Assembly: GCF_050320075.1 (NCBI RefSeq) | Contig: NZ_CP190018.1 | Reading direction: 5' to 3' (one strand) | Length of the DNA stretch: 64,000 nt | Origin: Escherichia coli | Lineage (GTDB): Bacteria > Pseudomonadota > Gammaproteobacteria > Enterobacterales > Enterobacteriaceae | Shown here: positions 10,753 through 45,416 of the stretch, one piece after another | Position numbering within the stretch: the first letter of the stretch is position 1 | How the letters are laid out: each line of letters starts with the position of its first letter | Translations under genes and position numbers: made by a program | Notes under the pieces: generated by a model | The model's input: the letters and a program-made list of their open reading frames with translations, nothing else | What the model was told of the DNA's origin: nothing | The model's database searches: none

Positions 10753-12078
10753 ATGAGCAAAGTAACTCCCCAGCCGAAAATCGGCTTTGTTTCCCTTGGC
10801 TGTCCGAAAAACCTTGTCGATTCAGAGCGTATTCTCACCGAACTACGCACTGAAGGTTATGACGTGGTACCGAGCTATGACGATGCGGACATGGTGATCG
10901 TCAACACCTGCGGCTTTATTGACAGCGCGGTACAAGAATCACTGGAAGCCATTGGTGAAGCGTTGAATGAAAACGGCAAGGTAATTGTGACCGGTTGTCT
11001 GGGGGCAAAAGAAGATCAGATCCTCGAAGTCCACCCGAAAGTGCTGGAAATCACCGGGCCTCATAGCTATGAGCAGGTTCTGGAGCACGTTCATCACTAC
11101 GTGCCAAAACCGAAACACAACCCATTCCTGAGCCTGGTGCCAGAACAAGGCGTGAAACTGACGCCGCGTCATTATGCCTATCTGAAAATTTCTGAAGGCT
11201 GTAATCACCGCTGCACCTTCTGCATTATTCCGTCTATGCGCGGCGACCTGGTGAGCCGTCCGATTGGCGAAGTGTTAAGTGAAGCGAAACGTCTGGTAGA
11301 TGCGGGCGTTAAAGAGATTCTGGTGATCTCGCAGGATACTTCCGCCTATGGCGTCGATGTTAAACATCGTACTGGCTTCCACAACGGCGAGCCGGTAAAA
11401 ACCAGCATGGTCAGCCTGTGCGAACAGTTATCGAAACTGGGGATCTGGACACGTCTGCACTACGTTTACCCTTATCCGCATGTGGACGACGTCATCCCAC
11501 TGATGGCAGAGGGCAAAATCCTGCCCTATCTGGACATTCCGTTGCAGCACGCCAGCCCGCGCATTCTCAAACTGATGAAACGTCCGGGTTCTGTAGATCG
11601 CCAACTGGCGCGCATCAAACAGTGGCGCAAAATCTGCCCGGAACTGACCCTACGCTCAACCTTTATTGTTGGCTTCCCTGGCGAGACGGAAGAAGATTTC
11701 CAGATGCTACTCGACTTCCTGAAAGAAGCACGTCTGGATCGCGTTGGCTGCTTTAAATACAGCCCGGTTGAAGGTGCAGACGCCAATGCCCTGCCTGACC
11801 AGGTTCCGGAAGAAGTGAAAGAAGAACGCTGGAACCGTTTCATGCAGCTGCAGCAGCAGATTTCCGCCGAGCGCCTGCAAGAGAAAGTGGGCCGTGAAAT
11901 TCTGGTGATTATCGACGAAGTGGACGAAGAAGGCGCGATTGGTCGCAGCATGGCAGATGCACCGGAAATCGACGGCGCGGTTTATCTCAATGGTGAAACC
12001 AACGTTAAGCCGGGTGATATCCTGCGTGTGAAAGTCGAGCACGCCGATGAGTACGATTTGTGGGGTAGCCGGGTTTAA
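10753..12078 (+). CDS. rimO: Ribosomal protein S12 methylthiotransferase RimO
   Basis: 441-aa ORF; radical-SAM CxxxCxxC (CNHRCTFC) and MTTase N-terminal cysteines. Confidence 0.9.
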
Positions 12079-12251
12079 TTAATCTTAAGGCAGATCTAAC
12101 AAGGATATTGTTCTTCGATCTGCCTCTGCTACCCTTCCCGATGTCCTACCCTTACGCACAAAATCCCCTGACGCATAAATCGAGAAAAATGAATCGTACT
12201 CGAGGCAACTCTCACTTTTTCACACCAAATTAAAGTTTTGATCGCAATTAC

Positions 12252-12288
12252 TTGAAATAAGCGTAATGGTTACTATAGTAAACATTAC
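12252..12288 (+). promoter_or_regulatory. Candidate sigma-70 promoter with overlapping palindromic operator for the toxin-antitoxin pair
   Basis: TTGAAA (12252-12257), 16-nt spacer, TATAGT (12274-12279); 26-bp near-perfect palindrome GTAATGGTTACTATAGTAAACATTAC (12263-12288) spans the -10; SD AAGGATGG before ATG 12304. Confidence 0.5.
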
Positions 12289-12303
12289 CACAAGGATGGA
12301 TGT

Positions 12304-12690
12304 ATGGGTGTGTATAAGGCAAGACGATTCAGCCAAAGCACGAAAAAACTTGGTATTCACGATAAAGTTCTCATGGCTGCCGCTGAAGAAGTGATGCAGG
12401 GCATATGGGAGGCTGATTTAGGTAGCGGTGTCATCAAAAAACGTTTACCCCTCCAACAAGGAAAGAGTGGTGGAGCCAGAACAATTATCTTTTTTAAATC
12501 AGCAAATCATGTGTTTTTTTATGATGGTTGGTCCAAGAGTGGTCTAAGCAGTAAAGGAACCAAAGAAATCGAAGATGATGAACTGGCGGCCTACAAAAAA
12601 ATGGCAAATGCATTTCTGGCCTTTAGCAATAAGCAAATAGAGGATTTGATCGAAACTGGCTTTTTGATTGAGGTGAAAAATGAGCGATAA
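12304..12690 (+). CDS. RelE/HigB-2-like type II toxin (GKSGGAR motif)
   Basis: 128-aa ORF; motif QQGKSGGARTIIFF resembles recalled HigB-2/RelE-like toxins; precedes and overlaps an HTH antitoxin gene by 11 nt; absent from the K-12 rimO-dgcI interval. Confidence 0.75.
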   Translation: MGVYKARRFSQSTKKLGIHDKVLMAAAEEVMQGIWEADLGSGVIKKRLPLQQGKSGGARTIIFFKSANHVFFYDGWSKSGLSSKGTKEIEDDELAAYKKMANAFLAFSNKQIEDLIETGFLIEVKNER

Positions 12691-13009
12691 ATTACAAATG
12701 ATGCTGGAAGATGCAAAGGAACTGAATGCACTGGGCCTGATGTCTGATAGTGAAGTTGATGCCATTGCCGTCATGGTCAAAGCTCGTGAAGTCAGCGCCC
12801 GTATAGCCAAAGTCAAATCAATGACGGGTGAAGAGATCAAAGCCATCCGCACCCGATACGGCATGTCACAATCCGTGCTGGCACATACAATGGGAATGTC
12901 AAAAGAAAGTGTCTCGAAATGGGAACGAAATGAAATAAAACCGAGCGGCCCGGCACTACGTATTTTGAATACATTGGCAATAAAAGGGCCGGAAGTTTTT
13001 GCAAAGTAA
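12680..13009 (+). CDS. XRE-family HTH antitoxin (HigA-2-like)
   Basis: 109-aa ORF; C-terminal HTH (GMSQSVLAHTMGMSKESVSKWERNEIKPSGPALRILNTL); ATG lies inside the toxin gene 3' end. Confidence 0.75.
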   Translation: MSDKLQMMLEDAKELNALGLMSDSEVDAIAVMVKAREVSARIAKVKSMTGEEIKAIRTRYGMSQSVLAHTMGMSKESVSKWERNEIKPSGPALRILNTLAIKGPEVFAK

Positions 13010-13037
13010 AATGTTTGCAAATGATTTACCACATTCA

Positions 13038-13065
13038 TTAGTACCCCTTGATTAAGGGGTACTAA
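13038..13065. terminator. Hairpin between antitoxin gene and convergent dgcI
   Basis: TTAGTACCCCTT-GATT-AAGGGGTACTAA, ~12-bp stem with 4-nt loop. Confidence 0.55.
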
Positions 13066-13078
13066 CACTATTCTAATT

Positions 13079-14407
13079 CTACTGCCAGCTAATCTGTGCC
13101 CTGCCGTTTTTCTTACTCTTATACAGTCGCTCATCCGCCAGCATTTTCAAGCGTTCAACGGTAGGACATTCATTTGAATGCGCTACACCGATACTGGTGC
13201 TTAAATTAATGCTTCCCACCTGGAAATGAACAATTTCTTTTAGAATCGATAGCAACTCTTCCAGCGTTCCACCCGTATAAATCACCGCAAATTCGTCACC
13301 GCCGAAGCGGTAGACTTTACCTTTATCTACCGGGATCTGTGATTTAAGGATTTTCACCACTTTCATCAACACTTCATCGCCCAGCAAATGACCGAAAGTG
13401 TCGTTGATGTTTTTGAATTTATCGACGTCAAACAGGCACAAATATCCGCCTTTTTCCGGCAGGGCTTTTAAATCTTCGTCAAAGGATTTTCTGCCCATCG
13501 CTTTGGTCAGGTCATCCAGGAACGCCGAGTTATACAGACTGTAGAGTTTTTTGACATCGGCAGCTGAAAAGAAAAGCCCGCCATCCAGTACGCGTTCAAA
13601 ATGGTTATTAATGATGGCTTCTTTCTCCACAATACCACGATTAATCACTCTGCGTACCAGATAGAGGCAACTGACACCCGATATCACTGCCACCAATGCG
13701 GCAAAGAAAATAATCAATGTACAGACCCGCAAATAAACATCTTTTTTATACGCAAATACGTACAATCCGGTCGGCAAATAGGCGAAGTGCTCCATCGCTT
13801 CCGAAACGGTGAAGATGGCGTTTTTAGCATTAAATTCATCACCGGTCACCGGTTTACCGTTCTTAAACAGAGAGAACATCAGGTTCTCGCTATCCATCGC
13901 CAGCGATTTTGACAGTAAAGAAAAACGCTCCAGACCAAGCAAAAATATCAGACTACGATTATGAGTTACCGGATAGAGGTAATAGACGAAGGTTTTACCG
14001 TCAAAAGAGATAAACCCTGTATTTTTGACATGTCGATACTTCACAATCTGCATAATATCTGCACAATAATTTTTCTCGAACTCCTTTACCTGAATACATT
14101 CGTCACTGGAAATCAGATAAGGACCGACATCGTACAAATAAGAGGGTGAAACCGAGTCGGCGTAAGCTGTGCGCAAGCCAACCAACAGCTGTTCCTCCGT
14201 GGGATTTAGCGTGTTGATAAGATCAATTGCCACGCTACGCCGATATTCAGCAATATTTGCCACCGCAAAAGCAGTATCAATAACGGACTGTTTCAGGCCA
14301 TACACCCGTTCCTTTACCATTTGAGTGTAGATCCCGCAGGCAACTGCTGAAATCATGATAAAAATCAGCAGACTGACTGTAAGTACGAACTTATTGATTC
14401 TGGACAT
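13079..14407 (-). CDS. dgcI: Diguanylate cyclase DgcI (YliF)
   Basis: 442-aa ORF with N-terminal TM segments and GGDEF domain (RFGGDEF). Confidence 0.9.
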
Positions 14408-16487: not shown

Positions 16488-16502
16488 GGTAATGACTCCA
16501 AC

Positions 16503-17006
16503 TTATTGATAGTGTTTTATGTTCAGATAATGCCCGATGACTTTGTCATGCAGCTCCACCGATTTTGAGAACGACAGCGACTTCCGTCCCAGCCGTGCCA
16601 GGTGCTGCCTCAGATTCAGGTTATGCCGCTCAATTCGCTGCGTATATCGCTTGCTGATTACGTGCAGCTTTCCCTTCAGGCGGGATTCATACAGCGGCCA
16701 GCCATCCGTCATCCATATCACCACGTCAAAGGGTGACAGCAGGCTCATAAGACGCCCCAGCGTCGCCATAGTGCGTTCACCGAATACGTGCGCAACAACC
16801 GTCTTCCGGAGCCTGTCATACGCGTAAAACAGCCAGCGCTGGCGCGATTTAGCCCCGACGTATCCCCACTGTTCGTCCATTTCCGCGCAGACGATGACGT
16901 CACTGCCCGGCTGTATGCGCGAGGTTACCGACTGCGGCCTGAGTTTTTTAAATGGCGGAAAATCGTGTTGAGGCCAACGCCCATAATGCGGGCAGTTGCC
17001 CGGCAT
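16503..17006 (-). CDS. insB: IS1 transposase InsB (expressed as InsAB' by -1 frameshift)
   Basis: 167-aa ORF, matches recalled IS1 InsB. Confidence 0.9.
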
Positions 17007-17200
17007 CCAACGCCATTCATGGCCATATCAATGATTTTCTGGTGCGTACCGGGTTGAGAAGCGGTGTAAGTGAACTGCAGTTGCCATGTTTTACGGCAGT
17101 GAGAGCAGAGATAGCGCTGATGTCCGGCGGTGCTTTTGCCGTTACGCACCACCCCGTCAGTAGCTGAACAGGAGGGACAGCTGATAGAAACAGAAGCCAC
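16925..17200 (-). CDS. insA: IS1 InsA repressor
   Basis: 91-aa ORF beginning [40 protein letters not shown] (zinc-finger and HTH). Confidence 0.9.
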
Positions 17201-17255
17201 TGGAGCACCTCAAAAACACCATCATACACTAAATCAGTAAGTTGGCAGCATCACC

Positions 17256-19568: not shown

Positions 19569-21107
19569 TTATTGCAAATCCGCGTCTTCAAAGCTGAAAC
19601 CGGTGTCTGGCATGATCCAAAAACCGGTCAGGTTTTTACTGTGTGCCGACACCAGTTTTTCTACCACCAGCGGGATCCACGGCGACTCTTGCCAGATGAT
19701 ATCCTGCGCCGCCTTATATAAACGGGTCTTTTCTGCCGGATCATTAGTTTTCAGTGCCTGAGCCAGGAAGTCATCCACCTGTTTATTGCTGTAAAACGCG
19801 GTATTAAACAGCGTCGGTGGCCAGTTCTGCGAGGCAAACAGCGGCGATAGTGCCCAGTCCGCTTCGCCGGTTGAAGCCGACCAGCCAGTGTAGAACATCC
19901 GCACGCCGCTCTCTTTTTGCCCTTTACCTTCAACTTCTGCCGCCCGCTGTCCGGCATCCATCGCAGTCACCTGGGCTTTAATCCCGACCTGCGCTAACTG
20001 CTGCTGGGTAAATTGCAGCACTTTCTGCGCGGTGCTGTGGTTATGTGACGACCACAGCGTGGTATTGAAACCGTTGGGATATCCCGCCTCTTTCAGTAAT
20101 TCGCGCGCTTTCACTGGATCGTAAGGCCACGGTTTATAACTTTGCGCGTAGGCGATACTCGGCGGTACCACACCAGTAGCTGGCGTTGCATAGCCCGCGA
20201 AGGCCACTTTCACCAGCGCCGGGCGGTTAATGGCGTAATTCAGCGCCTCACGGACCTTCGGGTTATCGAACGGCTTTTGCGTCACGTTCATACTGATATA
20301 ACGCTGCATAATTGACGGACTGGCCATCAACTCGATATTTTTGTTTTTCTCCAGCAGTGCGGCCTGCTCGTAGGGAATGGGGAAAGCAAACTGCGCTTCA
20401 CCGGTTTGCAGCATTGCCGCGCGGGTGTTGTTATCCGCCACCGGACGCCAGGTTATGCTGTCCAGTTTGGGCAATCCTGGCTGCCAGTAACCCGCGAATT
20501 TTTTCACCTTCACAAAATCGGTCTGATTCCAGGTATCCAGTTCATACGGCCCGGTTCCCACCGGATGAAAACCAATCTCCTTGCCATATTTTTCCAGCGC
20601 TGCCGGCGAAATCATCGCGGTCGCCGGATGGGCAAGAATATTAATAAACGCTGAGAACGGCTGTTTGAGGGTAATCTTTACCGTTGTTGGATCGATCGCT
20701 TCCGTTTTGGCAATATTCTTATACAGGTTGTAGCGTTTAAGATGATTCGCCGGATCGCTGGCCCGGTCCAGATTCGCTTTTACCGCCGCTGCGTTGAAAT
20801 CGGTGCCATCCTGGAATTTAATTCCTTCCCGCAATTTCACGGTGTATGTAAGGCCGTCATCGGAAACGGTATAACTCTCCGCCAGCACGTTTTTCAGTTT
20901 CATCTCTTTATCCAGACCAAACAGCCCCTGGTAAAACGATTTCGCTACGGCCTGAGATAACGTGTCATTTGCGTCATACGGATCGAGCGTGGTGAAGTTC
21001 GATCCTACCGCCACCACCACATCTTTGGCAGCGAATGCACAAGATGCCATCAACGCTGTCGCAATGCCCAGCGCCACTAACCCACTACGGTGTACAGCTC
21101 TTGCCAT
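19569..21107 (-). CDS. gsiB: Glutathione-binding periplasmic protein GsiB
   Basis: ORF 19569..21374; start at internal ATG (21105-21107) giving 512 aa with signal peptide [26 protein letters not shown]. Confidence 0.9.
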
Positions 21108-31467: not shown

Positions 31468-32733
31468 ATGGCTTCTACTTTTACCAGCGACACATTGCCT
31501 GCCGATCACAAAGCAGCTATCCGTCAGATGAAGCACGCGCTGCGGGCGCAGCTTGGCGACGTCCAGCAGATCTTTAATCAGCTAAGCGATGACATTGCCA
31601 CGCGAGTGGCTGAAATCAACGCACTCAAAGCACAGGGCGATGCCGTCTGGCCGGTGCTGTCTTATGCCGATATCAAAGCAGGTCATGTTACTGCAGAGCA
31701 GCGCATACAGATTAAACGTCGCGGTTGTGCGGTGATAAAAGGCCATTTCCCCCGCGAACAAGCGCTAGGCTGGGATCAGTCGATGCTGGACTATCTGGAC
31801 CGCAACCGCTTTGACGAGGTCTACAAAGGCCCCGGCGATAATTTCTTCGGGACGCTCAGCGCTTCACGTCCCGAGATTTACCCCATCTACTGGTCGCAGG
31901 CGCAAATGCAGGCTCGCCAGAGTGAAGAAATGGCGAATGCGCAGTCGTTTCTCAATCGTCTGTGGACATTTGAAAGTGATGGAAAGCAATGGTTTAACCC
32001 GGATGTGAGCGTCATCTACCCTGACCGTATCCGCCGCCGTCCGCCCGGAACGACCTCCAAAGGTCTTGGAGCGCATACCGACTCCGGGGCACTGGAACGC
32101 TGGCTGCTTCCAGCGTATCAGCGCGTTTTCGCCAACGTCTTTAATGGCAATCTGGCGCAATATGATCCCTGGCATGCGGCACATCGTACGGAAGTTGAAG
32201 AGTACACGGTGGACAACACCACCAAATGTTCCGTGTTTCGGACATTCCAGGGCTGGACAGCGCTCTCTGATATGCTGCCTGGTCAGGGGCTGCTGCACGT
32301 CGTGCCCATTCCTGAAGCCATGGCGTACGTACTGTTACGTCCGCTGCTTGATGATGTGCCGGAGGATGAACTGTGCGGCGTAGCGCCCGGAAGAGTATTG
32401 CCGGTATCAGAGCAATGGCATCCACTGTTGATTGAGGCGTTAACCAGCATTCCAAAACTCGAAGCCGGAGACTCCGTCTGGTGGCACTGCGACGTCATCC
32501 ATTCCGTTGCCCCCGTTGAAAATCAACAGGGCTGGGGCAACGTGATGTACATTCCTGCGGCACCGATGTGCGAGAAAAATCTTGCCTACGCGCACAAGGT
32601 GAAGGCCGCACTGGAAAAAGGCGCATCGCCGGGCGACTTCCCGCGCGAGGACTATGAAACAAACTGGGAAGGACGCTTTACGCTTGCCGACCTCAACATT
32701 CACGGTAAGCGAGCGTTGGGAATCGACAGCTGA
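31468..32733 (+). CDS. ybiU: DUF1479-family protein YbiU
   Basis: ORF 31462..32733; ATG 31468 (MASTFTSDTLPADHK); 421 aa. Confidence 0.85.
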   Translation: MASTFTSDTLPADHKAAIRQMKHALRAQLGDVQQIFNQLSDDIATRVAEINALKAQGDAVWPVLSYADIKAGHVTAEQRIQIKRRGCAVIKGHFPREQALGWDQSMLDYLDRNRFDEVYKGPGDNFFGTLSASRPEIYPIYWSQAQMQARQSEEMANAQSFLNRLWTFESDGKQWFNPDVSVIYPDRIRRRPPGTTSKGLGAHTDSGALERWLLPAYQRVFANVFNGNLAQYDPWHAAHRTEVEEYTVDNTTKCSVFRTFQGWTALSDMLPGQGLLHVVPIPEAMAYVLLRPLLDDVPEDELCGVAPGRVLPVSEQWHPLLIEALTSIPKLEAGDSVWWHCDVIHSVAPVENQQGWGNVMYIPAAPMCEKNLAYAHKVKAALEKGASPGDFPREDYETNWEGRFTLADLNIHGKRALGIDS

Positions 32734-33803
32734 GTGTCGTACAGCCCTTCCCGTTCCACGGCGGTGTTCCCTTTTCCTGGGCGAACCCGCCGCACTGACT
32801 CCCGCACCGCCAATCGTCCGTGCAGCAGCAGCGAGCCCACCGGAGCATCCGGGCGAATCAGCCGCTGTTGCAACATTTGCACCGCTTCATTGCCTAGCTC
32901 ATCGCGTGGCACATGCACAGCCGTCAGGGGAACATCCTCGATTGCCGCAAGGTTAAAGCCGTCGATACTCATCACCGAGACATCCTGTGGTACGCGCAGA
33001 CCACGACGATGTAGCGCATTTACCGTTCCCGCCGCCATAAAATCCCCGCCGACCAGAAACGCCGTCGGCAACGTCTTGCCATTGGCGGCATCCAGCCACG
33101 CTCCGACCTTTTCTTCCGCTTCTTTAGCGCTAAAACTGCTGATATTCAGCAAATGACGGTCATGGTGAAAGGCCAGATTATGCTGACGCCATGATTCTTT
33201 AATCCCTGCAAACCGCTGCTCCATAGTGTAGCGGCGCAGGCACATCACATTCATCACCTCCCGGTGACCCATTTCAAACAGATAGCGGGCGGCGAACGCG
33301 CCAATTAACCGATGGTCCGGCGCAATCGCCGGGAGGCGCATTCGTTCATCACGGCAGTTGATCAGCACACAAGGCTTAGCGAGATCGGCGGCCAGATCAT
33401 GGATGTGCGGATCGTCAATCCCCAGCAGGATCGCCGCCTGCGTATCTGCTTCATTCATTCGCGAGAGAAATAGCGCGGGATCGCTGTCAAACTCCTCCAG
33501 CGCGCAGTAACGCAGCCGCACTTCATGCGGCGATAACGCTTTGCTGATGCTCTGGATCACACGGTAATAAAAGATATCAGATCGTTGGTCAAAAGCGCGT
33601 TGCGGCGCGAAAATAATCAGGTTGTTCAGCAACATACGACCTGCTGCCATGCCATCCATCACGCCCAACTCACGCGCGCAGGCCAGCACCTGTTCGCGAG
33701 CGCGTGCACTGGTATTCGCTTTGCCAGCCAGCACCCGCGAAACCGTACTCGGCGATAGCCCGGTACGTGCGGCGATATCGGCGATTTTCAGCTTCTTGTC
33801 CAT
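32700..33803 (-). CDS. LacI/GalR-family transcriptional regulator (accessory island)
   Basis: ORF 32700..33881; start set at ATG 33801-33803 (MDKKLKIADIAARTGLSPSTVSRVLAG, N-terminal HTH); periplasmic-binding-like effector domain; last ~11 codons are antisense to the ybiU 3' end; not present between ybiU and ybiT in K-12. Confidence 0.8.
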   Translation of the reverse strand: MDKKLKIADIAARTGLSPSTVSRVLAGKANTSARAREQVLACARELGVMDGMAAGRMLLNNLIIFAPQRAFDQRSDIFYYRVIQSISKALSPHEVRLRYCALEEFDSDPALFLSRMNEADTQAAILLGIDDPHIHDLAADLAKPCVLINCRDERMRLPAIAPDHRLIGAFAARYLFEMGHREVMNVMCLRRYTMEQRFAGIKESWRQHNLAFHHDRHLLNISSFSAKEAEEKVGAWLDAANGKTLPTAFLVGGDFMAAGTVNALHRRGLRVPQDVSVMSIDGFNLAAIEDVPLTAVHVPRDELGNEAVQMLQQRLIRPDAPVGSLLLHGRLAVRESVRRVRPGKGNTAVEREGLYDTQLSIPNARLP

Positions 33804-34097
33804 TTTGTGATCTGCCTCTAATTCGGAAATGACAGAATTTTCATGAGCAAAAAAGCCCATTCTGTCTGGCATTAAATCCATTTCAGTAATGTATATCAGT
33901 CACTCATGGAAAAACGTGCACAAAACCCGCTTTCTTTCGCTTTTAGGGTCTCTTACTGTGAATTGGTAGAACAACTTCCATACAAAAATAATGGAAAAAC
34001 GAACAATAAAGACTTTATTTATCAAAAAGTTAAAAGTGGTGTGACAACTCCATTCTGACGTTGCCACACAAACCCTATACCATTCTGTGGAGTGCAT

Positions 34098-35399
34098 ATG
34101 AGTCAGGGTATCAATAACGATATGACTGCCAGTAAACCGCGCCATATCGTCAAAAATCTGCGTTGGTGGATACTGGTCCTTTTTTTGCTCGGTGTTACTG
34201 TCAACTACATCACGCGTAACTCGCTGGGTATTCTCGCCCCCGAACTGAAAAGCAACCTGGGGATTACCACCGAACAATATTCCTGGATTGTAGGTGCTTT
34301 CCAGCTCGCCTATACCCTATTCCAACCGTTGTGTGGATGGCTGATTGACGTCATTGGCCTCAAACTGGGCTTTATGATCTGCGCGGGACTGTGGGCGCTG
34401 GCCTGTCTGATGCATGCGGGGGCGGGAAACTGGGTACATCTGGCGCTGTTGCGCTTCTTTATGGGCGGTGCGGAAGCCGCGGCAACCCCAGCAAACGCCA
34501 AAACCATCGGTGAATGGTTTCCAAAATCAGAACGCCCGATCGCCGCAGGCTGGGCAGGCGTCGGTTTTTCCATCGGTGCCATGCTGGCCCCACCGATTAT
34601 CTATTTTGCCCACGCTTCATTCGGCTGGCAGGGTGCATTTATGTTCACTGGCATCCTGGCGATGCTGTGGGTGGTGCTGTGGTGGGCGTTCTATCACAAC
34701 CCGGATAAGCATCCGAACCTCAGCAAAGCCGAGCTGGACTTTATCCGCCAGGATAACGAAGCGCCCCCGATTAAATTACCCTTTCTGACCGCACTGAAAA
34801 CCGTGGGCAAAAATAAACGCTTTTACGGTATCGCTATCCCGGCCTTTATGGCAGAACCGGCGTGGGCGGTGATGAGTTTCTGGGTGCCGCTATACCTGTC
34901 CAAAACCTATGGCATGGACCTGAAGCAGATCGCATTATTCGCCTGGTTGCCGTTCCTCGCCGCTGATCTTGGCAGTATTGCCAGCGGCTATCTGACCAAA
35001 CTTTACACCCGCCTGTTTGGGCTGAGTCGTGTGAACTCCGTTGTCGCATCATCGGTCAGTGGCGCATTCTTGATGGTTTCGCTGGCGGTGATGGCCTTTA
35101 CCAATAACCCGTATATCGCCATCGTCCTTATTTCCATCGGCGGCTTCGGTCACCAGATCATCTCCTGCATGCTGAGCGCACTGGTGGTGGAATCCTTCGA
35201 CAAAGGTCAGATGGCCACTGTTAACGGCATGCGCGGTTCTGCCGCGTGGATCGCAAGTTTCCTGTTCTCCCTGATTATCGGGGTTACCGCTGACAAAATC
35301 GGCTTTAACCCCCTGTTTATCGCCATGGGCTTCTTTGACCTGATTGGCGCTTTCTTCCTGGTCACCTTTATTGCTGAACGTCGCGCAAAACGCGCCTGA
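34098..35399 (+). CDS. MFS transporter, anion:cation symporter family (ExuT/DgoT-like)
   Basis: ORF 34092..35399; ATG 34098 preceded by GTGGAG SD; 12-TM MFS; strong similarity pattern to recalled ExuT (e.g. TRN, FQPLCGWLIDVIG, GGAEAA, EWFP, FAWLPFLAADLG). Confidence 0.8.
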   Translation: MSQGINNDMTASKPRHIVKNLRWWILVLFLLGVTVNYITRNSLGILAPELKSNLGITTEQYSWIVGAFQLAYTLFQPLCGWLIDVIGLKLGFMICAGLWALACLMHAGAGNWVHLALLRFFMGGAEAAATPANAKTIGEWFPKSERPIAAGWAGVGFSIGAMLAPPIIYFAHASFGWQGAFMFTGILAMLWVVLWWAFYHNPDKHPNLSKAELDFIRQDNEAPPIKLPFLTALKTVGKNKRFYGIAIPAFMAEPAWAVMSFWVPLYLSKTYGMDLKQIALFAWLPFLAADLGSIASGYLTKLYTRLFGLSRVNSVVASSVSGAFLMVSLAVMAFTNNPYIAIVLISIGGFGHQIISCMLSALVVESFDKGQMATVNGMRGSAAWIASFLFSLIIGVTADKIGFNPLFIAMGFFDLIGAFFLVTFIAERRAKRA

Positions 35400-35413
35400 G
35401 AGTGGATGTAAAC

Positions 35414-37777
35414 ATGAAAACGCTGAAAAACTGGACCCTGCACAAACAGTCTGCCCACCACGTTGAACTGCTGGTCGATGGCCAGCATATCCTGTGCCTG
35501 TACGTGCTGGAAGAAAATCTGTTCCGCGTGCTGTTAAAACGCAAAGGCGAGCTGGCGCTGGATCGCACCTGGAGCATTGCTCCGGCGCAGGATGTGCCAT
35601 GGGAAGGGCGCAGCCGCGAAGATCTCAGCGGCTTTAGCCTGCCCGCGTGGACATTGATCCAGCACGACGACACCGTGGTTATCGCCACCGAGTCACTGCG
35701 TGCCACCGTTCACCAGCCGCTGTGGCTGGAGTGGCACTATCGTAACAACGAAGGCGAATGGCTGCCGTTGGTGAATGACCGCCCGACCAGCGCTTATCTG
35801 CTGAATGCCCACGGCGATGGCGTGGCACACTATCAGAGCCGTCGTAAAGATGAACGCTTTTATGGCCTCGGAGATAAAGCCGGCGACCTGCAACGCAACG
35901 GTAAACGTTACGAGATGCGTAACCTCGACGCGATGGGCTACAACGCCGTTAGTACTGACCCGCTGTACAAACACATTCCATTCACCATCACCCGCCGCGA
36001 TGACATTAGCTTCGGCCTGTTTTATGACAACCTCAGCAGCTGCTGGCTGGATCTGGGCAACGAGATCGACAACTACCACACCGCCTATCGCCGCTGGCAG
36101 GCGGAAGCGGGTGATATCGACTACTACCTGTTTACCGGCGAACGCGTACTTGATATCACCAAAGCCTTCGTACGCCTGACCGGCAAAACCCTGTTCGGAC
36201 CGAAATGGAGCCTGGGCTACAGCGGTTCAACTATGCACTACACCGATGCGCCGGACGCACAAAATCAGTTGATGAACTTTATCCGCCTGTGTGAAGAACA
36301 TGCGATTCCCTGCGATTCGTTCCAGCTCTCTTCCGGTTATACCTCAATTAACGGCAAGCGCTATGTGTTCAACTGGAATTACGACAAAGTGCCGCAGCCG
36401 AAAGTGATGAGCCAGGCATTTCACAATGCTGGTTTGCACCTGGCCGCCAATATCAAGCCGTGCCTGTTGCAGGATCACCCACGCTATAACGAAGTGGCAG
36501 AAAGAGGACTGTTCATCCGTGATTCAGAAACAGATGAACCAGAACGTTCCAGCTTCTGGGATGACGAAGGTTCTAACCTCGACTTTACTAATCCGCAGAC
36601 CATCCAGTGGTGGCAGGAAGGCGTGACCACACAGCTTCTGGAGATGGGTATCGACTCCACCTGGAACGACAACAACGAATTCGAAGTATGGGACGGTGAA
36701 GCACGCTGTCACGGCTTTGGTCAGACGATCGCGATCAAACATATTCGCCCGGTGATGCCACTGCTGATGATGCGAGCCTCGATGGAAGCCCAGCAACGTT
36801 TCGCTCCGGAAAAACGTCCGTACTTGATCTCCCGCTCCGGCTGCGCGGGAATGCAGCGCTATGTGCAGACCTGGAGCGGCGATAACCGCACTAGCTGGGA
36901 CACTCTGCGCTACAACACCCGCATGGGTCTGGGGATGAGCCTCTCCGGGCTGTATAACCTCGGTCACGACGTCGGCGGTTTCTCCGGTGATAAGCCGGAC
37001 CCGGAACTGTTTGTACGCTGGGTACAAAACGGCGTGATGCATCCGCGCTTTACGATTCACTCGTGGAACGATGACCATACCGTAAACGAACCGTGGATGT
37101 ATCCGGGCGTCACTCCGGCGATCCGCAGCGCTATTGAGTTGCGCTATCGCCTGCTGCCCTACTTTTATACCCTGATGTGGCAGGCATACGCCGATGATGA
37201 ACCAATGCTGCGTCCGACTTTCCTTGACCACGAGCACGACGTTCAGACTTTTGAAGAGTGTGATGACTTCCTGCTTGGTCGCGATATTTTGGTTGCCAGC
37301 GTCGTAGAGCAAGGCGAGCGCCAGCGCCGTGTATGGCTGCCAGATAACGAAACTGGCTGGTACGATTTCTACAACGGCGAATGGTTCAGTGGCGGTCAGT
37401 GGATCACCCTCGACGCACCGCTGGAGAAACTGCCGCTGATGGTGCGTGCCGGGGCTGGTCTACCGCTCAGCAAACGCATCACCTATGTGAGCGCAGAACA
37501 AGACGATACCCGCGAACTGAAACTGTTCCCGCTGAAAGGTGTGGGCACAACGTCCGGCCTGCTGTTTGAAGACGATGGCGAAAGCTGGGGCTACCAAACT
37601 GGTAATGCGCTTTGGGTGGAATGGGAAATGGTTTGCGATGGGGCGACCATCAACCTGAAAGTCAACGCGCGCGGGGATTATCGACCTGCATGGAGTGCAC
37701 TGAAAGTGTCATTACCAGTGGAAGAAAAACGCACGCTGCTGGTCAATGGTGTTGAAGGGAGTGAATGGATGCGTTAA
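35414..37777 (+). CDS. Glycoside hydrolase family 31 enzyme (alpha-glucosidase-like), specificity unknown
   Basis: ORF 35402..37777; ATG 35414; GH31 signature regions WNDNNEF (nucleophile region, cf. WIDMNE), QTWSGDNRTSW (acid/base region), GHDVGGF. Confidence 0.8.
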   Translation: MKTLKNWTLHKQSAHHVELLVDGQHILCLYVLEENLFRVLLKRKGELALDRTWSIAPAQDVPWEGRSREDLSGFSLPAWTLIQHDDTVVIATESLRATVHQPLWLEWHYRNNEGEWLPLVNDRPTSAYLLNAHGDGVAHYQSRRKDERFYGLGDKAGDLQRNGKRYEMRNLDAMGYNAVSTDPLYKHIPFTITRRDDISFGLFYDNLSSCWLDLGNEIDNYHTAYRRWQAEAGDIDYYLFTGERVLDITKAFVRLTGKTLFGPKWSLGYSGSTMHYTDAPDAQNQLMNFIRLCEEHAIPCDSFQLSSGYTSINGKRYVFNWNYDKVPQPKVMSQAFHNAGLHLAANIKPCLLQDHPRYNEVAERGLFIRDSETDEPERSSFWDDEGSNLDFTNPQTIQWWQEGVTTQLLEMGIDSTWNDNNEFEVWDGEARCHGFGQTIAIKHIRPVMPLLMMRASMEAQQRFAPEKRPYLISRSGCAGMQRYVQTWSGDNRTSWDTLRYNTRMGLGMSLSGLYNLGHDVGGFSGDKPDPELFVRWVQNGVMHPRFTIHSWNDDHTVNEPWMYPGVTPAIRSAIELRYRLLPYFYTLMWQAYADDEPMLRPTFLDHEHDVQTFEECDDFLLGRDILVASVVEQGERQRRVWLPDNETGWYDFYNGEWFSGGQWITLDAPLEKLPLMVRAGAGLPLSKRITYVSAEQDDTRELKLFPLKGVGTTSGLLFEDDGESWGYQTGNALWVEWEMVCDGATINLKVNARGDYRPAWSALKVSLPVEEKRTLLVNGVEGSEWMR

Positions 37778-37784
37778 ATCATTA

Positions 37785-45064: not shown

Positions 45065-45416
45065 AACCACCTCAAATGTGATTCAAATAAGTCCTAAGTT
45101 TTAAATATATCAAAAATTAATGGGAAACTCTTCGCGATTTGTGATGTCTAACGGGCCATTTCATGTAACAGAACGTTTCCATACACCGCTATCCATCTAA
45201 ATTTAAATCACTTTTTCAGAGAACTGCGTAAGTATTACGCATGTTTTCCCTGTCATTCATCCAGATTATTCCTAATCACCAGACTAATGATTCCATCAAT
45301 CCTGGCGCATTTTAGTCAAAACGGGGGAAAATTTTTTCAACAAATGCTCAACCAGCATTGGGTATATCCAGTACACTCCACGCTTTACTTAAGTCTAGAT
45401 ATTTGTGGGAGAAAGG

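Follow-up and report, generated by a model that had tools for sequence, protein, structure and literature searches.

A probable HigBA-2-type toxin-antitoxin operon between rimO and dgcI of Escherichia coli

The rimO-dgcI interval

The stretch of Escherichia coli DNA analysed here, 64,000 nucleotides of contig NZ_CP190018.1 (assembly GCF_050320075.1) and called the window below, carries between rimO and dgcI two genes that very probably form a type II toxin-antitoxin (TA) operon related to HigB-2/HigA-2 of Vibrio cholerae. The two open reading frames are co-oriented and overlap by 11 nt, with the toxin gene first and the Shine-Dalgarno sequence of the antitoxin gene (GAGGTG, 12670-12675) lying within it. 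In K-12 MG1655 the spacer between rimO and dgcI measures only 46 bp and the entire TA segment is absent; homology to K-12 ends 5 nt past the rimO stop codon (12084) and restarts inside the dgcI stop codon (13081), and about 997 bp in the window stand where K-12 has about 43 bp. The presence of two overlapping genes absent from K-12, and their toxin-first, HigBA-like order, had been described in the original prediction, which was made from the sequence without database searches, and both points were borne out (Table 1). The arrangement is widespread. A scan of species-representative genomes found 80 related loci, mostly in Enterobacterales, Legionellales and other Gammaproteobacteria, and in about 64 of the 71 loci examined a partner reading frame of roughly 100-124 amino acids begins within a few bases of the toxin stop codon, mostly overlapping it. 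Overlapping co-oriented genes, one promoter, a palindromic operator and pairing across taxa together mark the two genes, as far as sequence can tell, as a type II TA operon. The account given here draws on gene structure, protein family, catalytic positions, predicted folds, operator conservation, purifying selection, population distribution and synteny, all established by computational analysis.

Table 1. Coordinates of the TA operon, its control elements and its neighbours in the window.
Feature	Position	Strand	Basis or remark
rimO	10753-12078	+	Upstream neighbour of the pair
Variable segment (TA allele), replacing the ~43-bp K-12 rimO-dgcI spacer	12084-13080		Breakpoints of K-12 alignments
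Hairpin just past the rimO stop codon, likely rimO terminator in the TA allele	12088-12125	+	Inverted repeat; -16.2 kcal/mol, z -3.3
Sigma-70-type promoter (-35 TTGAAA 12252-12257, 16-nt spacer, -10 TATAGT 12274-12279)	12252-12279	+	10/12 matches
Putative operator (GTAA-N3-TTAC boxes 12263-12273 and 12278-12288, TATA between)	12263-12288		Conserved boxes; palindrome
Toxin gene, 128 aa, HigB-2/PF06296, RelE fold	12304-12690	+	ATG; Shine-Dalgarno AAGGA 12291-12295
Antitoxin gene, 109 aa; predicted helical N-terminal segment of ~46 aa, C-terminal XRE helix-turn-helix	12680-13009	+	ATG
Hairpin with a perfect 12-bp stem and a 4-nt loop; the TA operon and dgcI converge on it	13038-13065		Inverted repeat, folding
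dgcI	13079-14407	-	Convergent with the TA operon

The toxin

Residues 1-124 of the toxin match PF06296 over model positions 1-120 of 120 (E 7.9e-33), and the same domain is present in all 69 homologues for which a precomputed domain was available. Although this family is named 'RelE', it is the one to which V. cholerae HigB-2 belongs, and its toxin genes are followed by those of the antitoxins (PMC11980606). In the Pfam scan PF06296 was the only family above noise, with no match to ParE_toxin, to classical RelE (PF05016) or to HigB (PF09907, PF05015). A profile built from 30 homologues and searched against the PDB returned solely chains of V. cholerae HigB-2 (E 3e-4). The AlphaFold model of the toxin (predicted local distance difference test, pLDDT, 85; predicted template-modelling score, pTM, 0.80) shows a beta-alpha-alpha-beta4 fold followed by two C-terminal helices (residues 91-105 and 109-118). 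Its top five matches in the PDB are again HigB-2 chains (E 6e-4 to 8e-3, probability 0.98-1.0, TM-scores 0.45-0.57), below which stand Cami1, a Helicobacter pylori toxin, YafQ, RelE and YoeB, that is, mostly toxins of the RelE superfamily. A full-length match was also found to ToxP of Coxiella burnetii (36% identity, E 2e-24). These profile and fold matches support the proposed assignment of the toxin to the HigB-2/PF06296 family.

The active site can be followed residue by residue. In the profile alignment K45, R47, R59, W76 and K78 stand opposite K49, R51, R64, Y82 and K84 of V. cholerae HigB-2 (VcHigB2), so that four of the five catalytic positions are identical; K45, R47, R59 and K78 are invariant in the 30 homologues, and W76 is nearly so, with few exceptions that include Tyr. 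The aromatic position is thus Trp in the clade of this toxin and Tyr in homologue P0069 and in Coxiella ToxP. Alanine substitutions at R51, R64, Y82 and K84 of VcHigB2 lowered its activity 170- to 3000-fold (PMC5416850), and K49 is counted among its active-site residues (PMC10098735). The motif GKSGGAR, on which the original prediction had based the likeness to HigB-2, occupies residues 53-59 and forms the beta2-beta3 loop, rich in Gly and Lys, whose last residue is the catalytic R59. This loop is disordered in the VcHigB2 crystal, and the pLDDT of the toxin model falls below 50 at residues 54-56.

The toxin gene also contains a 9-bp direct repeat, AAGAGTGGT, at 12463-12471 and 12535-12543, 72 nt apart. 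An allele encoding a toxin of 104 amino acids (P0013), found on 23 contigs, is without precisely the 24 codons, for residues 54-77, that separate the repeats, and it probably arose by slippage at them; since R59 and W76 are removed, it is a natural in-frame, toxin-dead variant.

The antitoxin

The antitoxin carries the C-terminal cro/C1-type helix-turn-helix (HTH) that had been predicted for it, with a match to HTH_3 at residues 53-94 (E 3.4e-9). An antitoxin profile searched against the PDB found V. cholerae HigA-2 at E 1.8e-9, level with the P22 C2 repressor. In the structural model (pLDDT 89) the five C-terminal helices superimpose on the C-terminal domain of HigA-2; the best Foldseek matches, to 5jaa and 5j9i, have a root-mean-square deviation (rmsd) of 1.2-1.3 Å over 61-62 residues, TM-scores of 0.81-0.83 and 27-28% identity. 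The controller protein C.Kpn2I is among the best matches of the HTH domain in both sequence and fold, and the Coxiella protein AntitoxP is 33% identical over the full length. The HTH is preceded by a 46-residue N-terminal extension that is conserved within the clade.

Assignment of the antitoxin to MqsA (TIGR03830/PF15731) was considered and rejected: the score of 47.1 bits lies below the cutoff of 61.8 and the HTH half alone aligns. The zinc-binding CxxC...CxxC domain of MqsA was likewise rejected, as the antitoxin has no cysteine at all.

Promoter, putative operator and hairpins

The consensus-like promoter of the pair is overlain by a near-perfect palindrome of 26 bp (GTAATGGTTACTA/TAGTAAACATTAC; 12 of 13 pairs complementary), as had been noted. 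It is made up of two 11-bp boxes and the TATA between them and covers the -10 element and the likely transcription start. With up to three mismatches allowed, the full pattern occurs once in the window, against 0 expected from 100 shuffles. As RNA it folds no better than shuffled sequence (z -0.09), and it is therefore taken to be a DNA site and not an RNA structure. When 43 distinct promoters from Enterobacterales and Legionellales were aligned on the palindrome, the pattern GTAA-N3-TTAC-TATA-GTAA-N3-TTAC was found to lie at a constant distance from the start codon (-41 to -50). In related loci TATAGT and the TTG of the -35 element likewise keep their places, and the N3 spacers and the flanks vary. 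The outer GTAA and TTAC belong to neither promoter hexamer; their conservation therefore implies a DNA-binding protein, and on this comparative evidence the palindrome is best described as an operator-like element. More distant clades, including that of Coxiella, have a single 4-3-4 box with TATA on either side, as in TATA-GCAC-TTA-GTGC-TATA.

The spacing of the two boxes is that of the C-boxes recognised by restriction-modification controller (C) proteins, and C.Kpn2I is itself among the best matches of the antitoxin; together these favour, by analogy, a model in which two antitoxin dimers may bind side by side across the -10 element. Binding of a single dimer centred on TTAC-TATA-GTAA is a possible alternative.

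Upstream of the -35 element sequence is not conserved between genera, so that a third component or a leader is not indicated. A promoter scan of the toxin gene found no internal promoter specific to the antitoxin, and Rfam gave no match in 11900-13400. The strong hairpin predicted after the operon is present, with folding energies of -19.3 kcal/mol on the plus strand and -21.4 kcal/mol on the minus strand (z -4.0 and -5.0). It is a candidate bidirectional terminator, though not of textbook form: it has no U-tract, for which reason it was not called by a terminator scan.

The window contains three more single GTAA-N3-TTAC boxes, at 20671-20681, 35901-35911 and 45228-45238, which brings the total to 5, against 0.38 expected from shuffles. 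By the coordinates of a near-identical annotated strain, one is in gsiB, one in a gene for a family 31 glycosidase (GH31) and one in the intergenic region between ompX/yliM and rhtA. These could be chance occurrences or secondary antitoxin sites.

Distribution and history of the locus

A survey of 5426 complete E. coli genomes, one of the checks proposed with the original prediction, found the TA allele in 1138 (about a fifth) and the K-12 spacer in 4285; as these add up to 5423 genomes, the site is essentially biallelic. All copies but one in the 1138 carriers are chromosomal. The RefSeq labels of the two proteins are 'type II toxin-antitoxin system RelE/ParE family toxin' and 'helix-turn-helix domain-containing protein'. 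Carriers include O157:H7 Sakai (ECs_5400/ECs_5399), O7:K1 CE10 and the strain of protein accession CBG33750.1, which we take to be enteroaggregative E. coli 042. Both proteins are found unchanged on more than 1000 contigs each. Between the window and O157:H7 the pair is 98.5-99.1% identical and rimO, dgcI, pdeI and yliI are 98.0-98.9% identical; the promoter and operator do not differ, and the pair has accumulated 8 synonymous changes and 1 non-synonymous change, a pattern that indicates purifying selection.

Orthologous pairs, with toxins 68-74% identical, occupy this neighbourhood in other genera as well. Enterobacteriaceae bacterium UBA5654 has the order yliI-bssR-rimO, one open reading frame of 316 aa, the TA pair and gsiDCBA; in Kluyvera sichuanensis it is bssR, the TA pair and gsiDCBA; and in K. 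georgiana the pair adjoins gsiD and has phosphotransferase system genes on its other side. In these UBA5654 and Kluyvera loci (L009, 3738-4688; L005 and L010; L003) the pair directly adjoins gsiD, and dgcI-pdeI is absent. The interval between rimO and gsiD is therefore variable, and the TA pair is its constant element.

The original prediction had regarded the pair as a small cargo insertion, and this did not hold up: the site has two alleles, the pair diverges to the same extent as its flanks, and its neighbourhood is shared with Kluyvera and UBA5654. A search for a deletion scar between the 46-bp K-12 spacer and the TA allele found none (69 of 500 shuffles reached the score of the best local alignment), and the two spacers share no significant similarity, so that the junctions do not reveal whether sequence was gained or lost. 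On the sequence evidence, an old presence of the pair followed by its loss from many lineages is at least as likely as insertion. The divergence of the pair, which equals that of its flanks, and the shared rimO/bssR-gsiD neighbourhood argue for old residence or for exchange together with the flanks, and make a recent cargo insertion doubtful. E. coli BS-01 (NZ_CP172816.1, 2297-3165) has an apparently degenerate allele that lacks the antitoxin; it contains homopolymer runs, is most likely an artefact of a low-quality assembly and not real decay, and was not used.

In other hosts the module is mobile. A pair 55% identical to that of the window, with the same operator core, lies directly downstream of a resolvase gene in Xenorhabdus thailandensis (locus L007, 1-3829 and 4929-8387) and next to a Tn3-family transposase; further transposase genes, IS110 among them, are close by. 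This position indicates that the module travels on transposons in such hosts. The family was also found on 209 plasmid records. From phages it is almost absent, a single record having a relative of the toxin (Escherichia phage PhiR12_3, PV340552.1, 4340-4657); it is 37% identical and annotated as two hypothetical proteins.

Other features of the window

That no mobility genes flank the pair, as the original prediction stated, is true of the immediate flanks; 3.4 kb away, however, a 768-bp copy of IS1 (16488-17255), which made an 8-bp target duplication, interrupts pdeI in its 5' part, at about codon 92. This insertion is unrelated to the TA pair, but it means that pdeI, the phosphodiesterase gene beside dgcI, is disrupted in the strain of the window. 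In strain CFSAN061763, which is identical across the TA region, IS1 lies within dgcI and not in pdeI, so that this pair of cyclic di-GMP genes has been hit by IS1 independently. Further along, at about 32700-37780 (coordinates taken via the near-identical strain of locus L088), ybiU and ybiT are separated by genes for a LacI-family regulator, a major facilitator superfamily transporter and a GH31 glycoside hydrolase. As ybiU and ybiT are presumably adjacent in K-12, the block looks like another accessory insert in the window.

Proposed mechanism and alternatives

It is likely, with a probability of roughly 0.85, that the pair is an intact and autoregulated type II operon of the HigBA-2 type, encoding a ribosome-dependent, mRNA-cleaving toxin and an antitoxin that both neutralises the toxin and represses the operon, with translation of the two genes coupled through the 11-nt overlap. 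The RelE-fold toxin would enter the ribosomal A site and cleave mRNA as it is translated, using the active site formed by K45, R47, R59, W76 and K78. The antitoxin would be translated from the start that overlaps the end of the toxin gene; its N-terminal 46 or so residues, judging by their position, would neutralise the toxin, and its C-terminal HTH would dimerise and bind DNA. Alone or in complex with the toxin, it would repress the operon through the double GTAA-N3-TTAC element that straddles the -10. On loss of the antitoxin, presumed to be labile, free toxin would arrest translation. It is a prediction of this model that the toxin is toxic and cleaves RNA and that the antitoxin is labile and binds DNA; the stoichiometry of this binding and the biological role of the pair are inferred as well.

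Several observations weigh against this reading. The similarity to VcHigB2 is too weak to be seen pairwise, a single-sequence phmmer search of the toxin against the PDB having returned no match; no model in NCBIfam or PADLOC matches the toxin; and the structural match to HigB-2 is moderate, with TM-scores of 0.48-0.57 and an rmsd of about 5 Å. The catalytic Tyr is replaced by Trp76. The 46 N-terminal residues of the antitoxin have no sequence similarity to the disordered region of HigA-2 and are modelled as two confident helices (pLDDT up to ~95) rather than a helix and a strand. Toxin-dead alleles exist in some E. coli, with truncated, frameshifted and internally deleted variants on record. 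No experimental study of this E. coli locus turned up in a literature search. Salmonella SehA, a RelE-fold toxin of another HigB family, has no RNase activity and acts instead on RNase III (PMC12817084).

Among the alternatives, the one that survives best leaves the molecular mechanism in place and holds that the selected role is phage defence by abortive infection, rather than stress response or mere addiction. Modules of the RelE/ParE superfamily are increasingly reported as defence toxins (PMC11980606), the locus is present or absent by strain, as is typical of defence genes, and its relatives occur on plasmids and beside Tn3-family transposase and resolvase genes. However, the toxin has no PADLOC match and the antitoxin only generic HTH matches, there are no defence genes among the neighbouring genes, the synteny is stable across genera, unlike that of a defence island, and only one distant phage relative was found. 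A role in defence is accordingly considered unlikely.

A somewhat less probable proposal, which extends the preferred reading in another direction, joins the syntenic and the operator evidence: the pair would be a long-domesticated resident of the rimO/bssR-gsiD interval in three genera and not a transient addiction cassette, the antitoxin would repress as a C-protein-like tetramer on the double 4-3-4 box, and the proximity to rimO would be functional. The target that RimO modifies is ribosomal protein S12, at the decoding centre; an A-site toxin would act at that centre too, and the persistent position of the pair beside rimO would, if this were true, reflect a functional link. A tetramer on the double box may represent an architecture distinct from the single-site, 'fuzzy' recognition of V. 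cholerae HigA-2, and action of the antitoxin at other chromosomal GTAA-N3-TTAC boxes is a further possibility. Taken as a whole, the combination is a speculative one.

It is more improbable still that the pair is a TA system whose toxin strikes a target other than ribosome-bound mRNA, as SehA does RNase III or ParE does gyrase. SehA had been predicted to be a HigB-type RNase and yet lacks RNase activity, and the residues critical to it are in an additional C-terminal helix; the toxin of the window has two C-terminal helices beyond the beta-sheet as well as Trp in place of the catalytic Tyr, and its RefSeq label does not distinguish RelE from ParE. However, SehAB belongs to the family of K-12 HigBA and not to PF06296, and SehA lacks a canonical active site, whereas here four of the five HigB-2 positions are identical and invariant. 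The two C-terminal helices fall within the region matched by PF06296, the absence of a ParE_toxin match speaks against a ParE-like target, and ToxP inhibits translation and becomes non-toxic when the lysine equivalent to K78 is mutated. The least probable reading of all is that the pair is a decaying relic, intact in appearance but with its toxicity or expression lost: decay is common among chromosomal TA loci, broken toxins such as the 104-aa allele are on record and most E. coli genomes lack the locus, but in the window the promoter and operator are intact, as are both reading frames and their Shine-Dalgarno sites, the changes against O157:H7 are nearly all synonymous, the catalytic residues are invariant across genera and identical proteins recur on more than 1000 contigs.

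Significance

The family, mechanism and regulation of such pairs are already known, and RefSeq names the toxin in more than 1000 complete genomes. Apart from the conserved double-palindrome operator and the long residence at its site, the pair is an ordinary one. The additions made here are modest: a C-box-like double operator, the change from Tyr to Trp in the enterobacterial clade, and syntenic residence with a clean two-allele polymorphism. The pair is nevertheless a chromosomal member of the HigBA-2 family that E. coli K-12 lacks, and its presence in O157:H7 and about a fifth of complete genomes makes it an easy natural presence/absence system in which to study the function of the module. 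Beyond the operator and this use, the existing annotation is mainly confirmed.

Comparison with known systems

The closest well-studied counterpart is HigB-2/HigA-2 of the V. cholerae superintegron (PDB 5JA8, 5JAA, 5J9I, 8A0X), to which the profile searches suggested with the original prediction led for both proteins. The two systems share the PF06296 family and the toxin-first order, a RelE-like active site (K, R, R, aromatic, K) with a Gly/Lys-rich beta2-beta3 loop before the catalytic Arg, an antitoxin in which an N-terminal segment (neutralising in HigA-2, putatively so here) precedes a C-terminal XRE HTH for dimerisation and DNA binding, and an operator located between the -35 and across the -10. 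They differ in that the toxins are only ~15% identical in structural alignment, with Trp in place of Tyr82, and the E. coli toxin exceeds HigB-2 by 18 residues and has two C-terminal helices; the N-terminus of the E. coli antitoxin is longer and predicted to be helical. The base-contacting residues of HigA-2, R68, E71, N72 and R77, correspond to E76, S79, K80 and E85, so that all four differ. Likewise, the mapped V. cholerae operator is a single TGTACGC-N5-GCGTACA repeat (PMC11006873), in contrast to the double GTAA-N3-TTAC box of E. coli, a difference consistent with the change of all four base-contacting residues.

The closest experimentally tested relative is ToxP/AntitoxP of Coxiella burnetii (CBUA0028/0027, plasmid QpH1), which has the same gene order. 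ToxP is toxic and inhibits translation; AntitoxP neutralises it and binds the promoter as well as ToxP itself; and a mutant in Lys79 (equivalent to K78 here) has lost toxicity (PMC10098735). This system differs from the E. coli pair in being a plasmid-borne maintenance module, in keeping Tyr at the aromatic position, and in having a single palindrome of the AGTTCACTTAGTGATATAG type in its promoter and not a double box.

HigBA of E. coli K-12 (YgjN/YgjM) and SehAB of Salmonella are also toxin-first type II systems with a RelE-superfamily toxin and an HTH antitoxin. However, the YgjN-type HigB belongs to PF09907, which the toxin of the window does not match, and SehB is a larger antitoxin of 142 aa with a folded N-terminal dimerisation domain. 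The possibility that SehAB is closely related to the pair was considered and rejected, as the 46% identity of SehB to K-12 HigA places SehAB in a different family.

In operator design the pair comes closest to the C proteins of restriction-modification systems. The C-boxes of C.Esp1396I, C.AhdI and C.PvuII have a geometry identical to that of the operator in the window (GACTnnnAGTCnnnnGACTnnnAGTC compared with GTAAnnnTTACtataGTAAnnnTTAC), with the layout 4-3-4-4-4-3-4 and box centres 15 bp apart, and this layout binds two XRE-HTH dimers cooperatively (PMC2504287). The tetranucleotides differ, and C proteins lack a toxin-binding extension. C-boxes overlap the -35 element and serve activation followed by repression, whereas the boxes of the TA operon flank the -10, for which reason repression only would be expected. 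The likeness is one of design and not of membership, and the double-box operator offers a testable contrast to the only HigA-2 operator studied, linking TA antitoxins to restriction-modification controller proteins.

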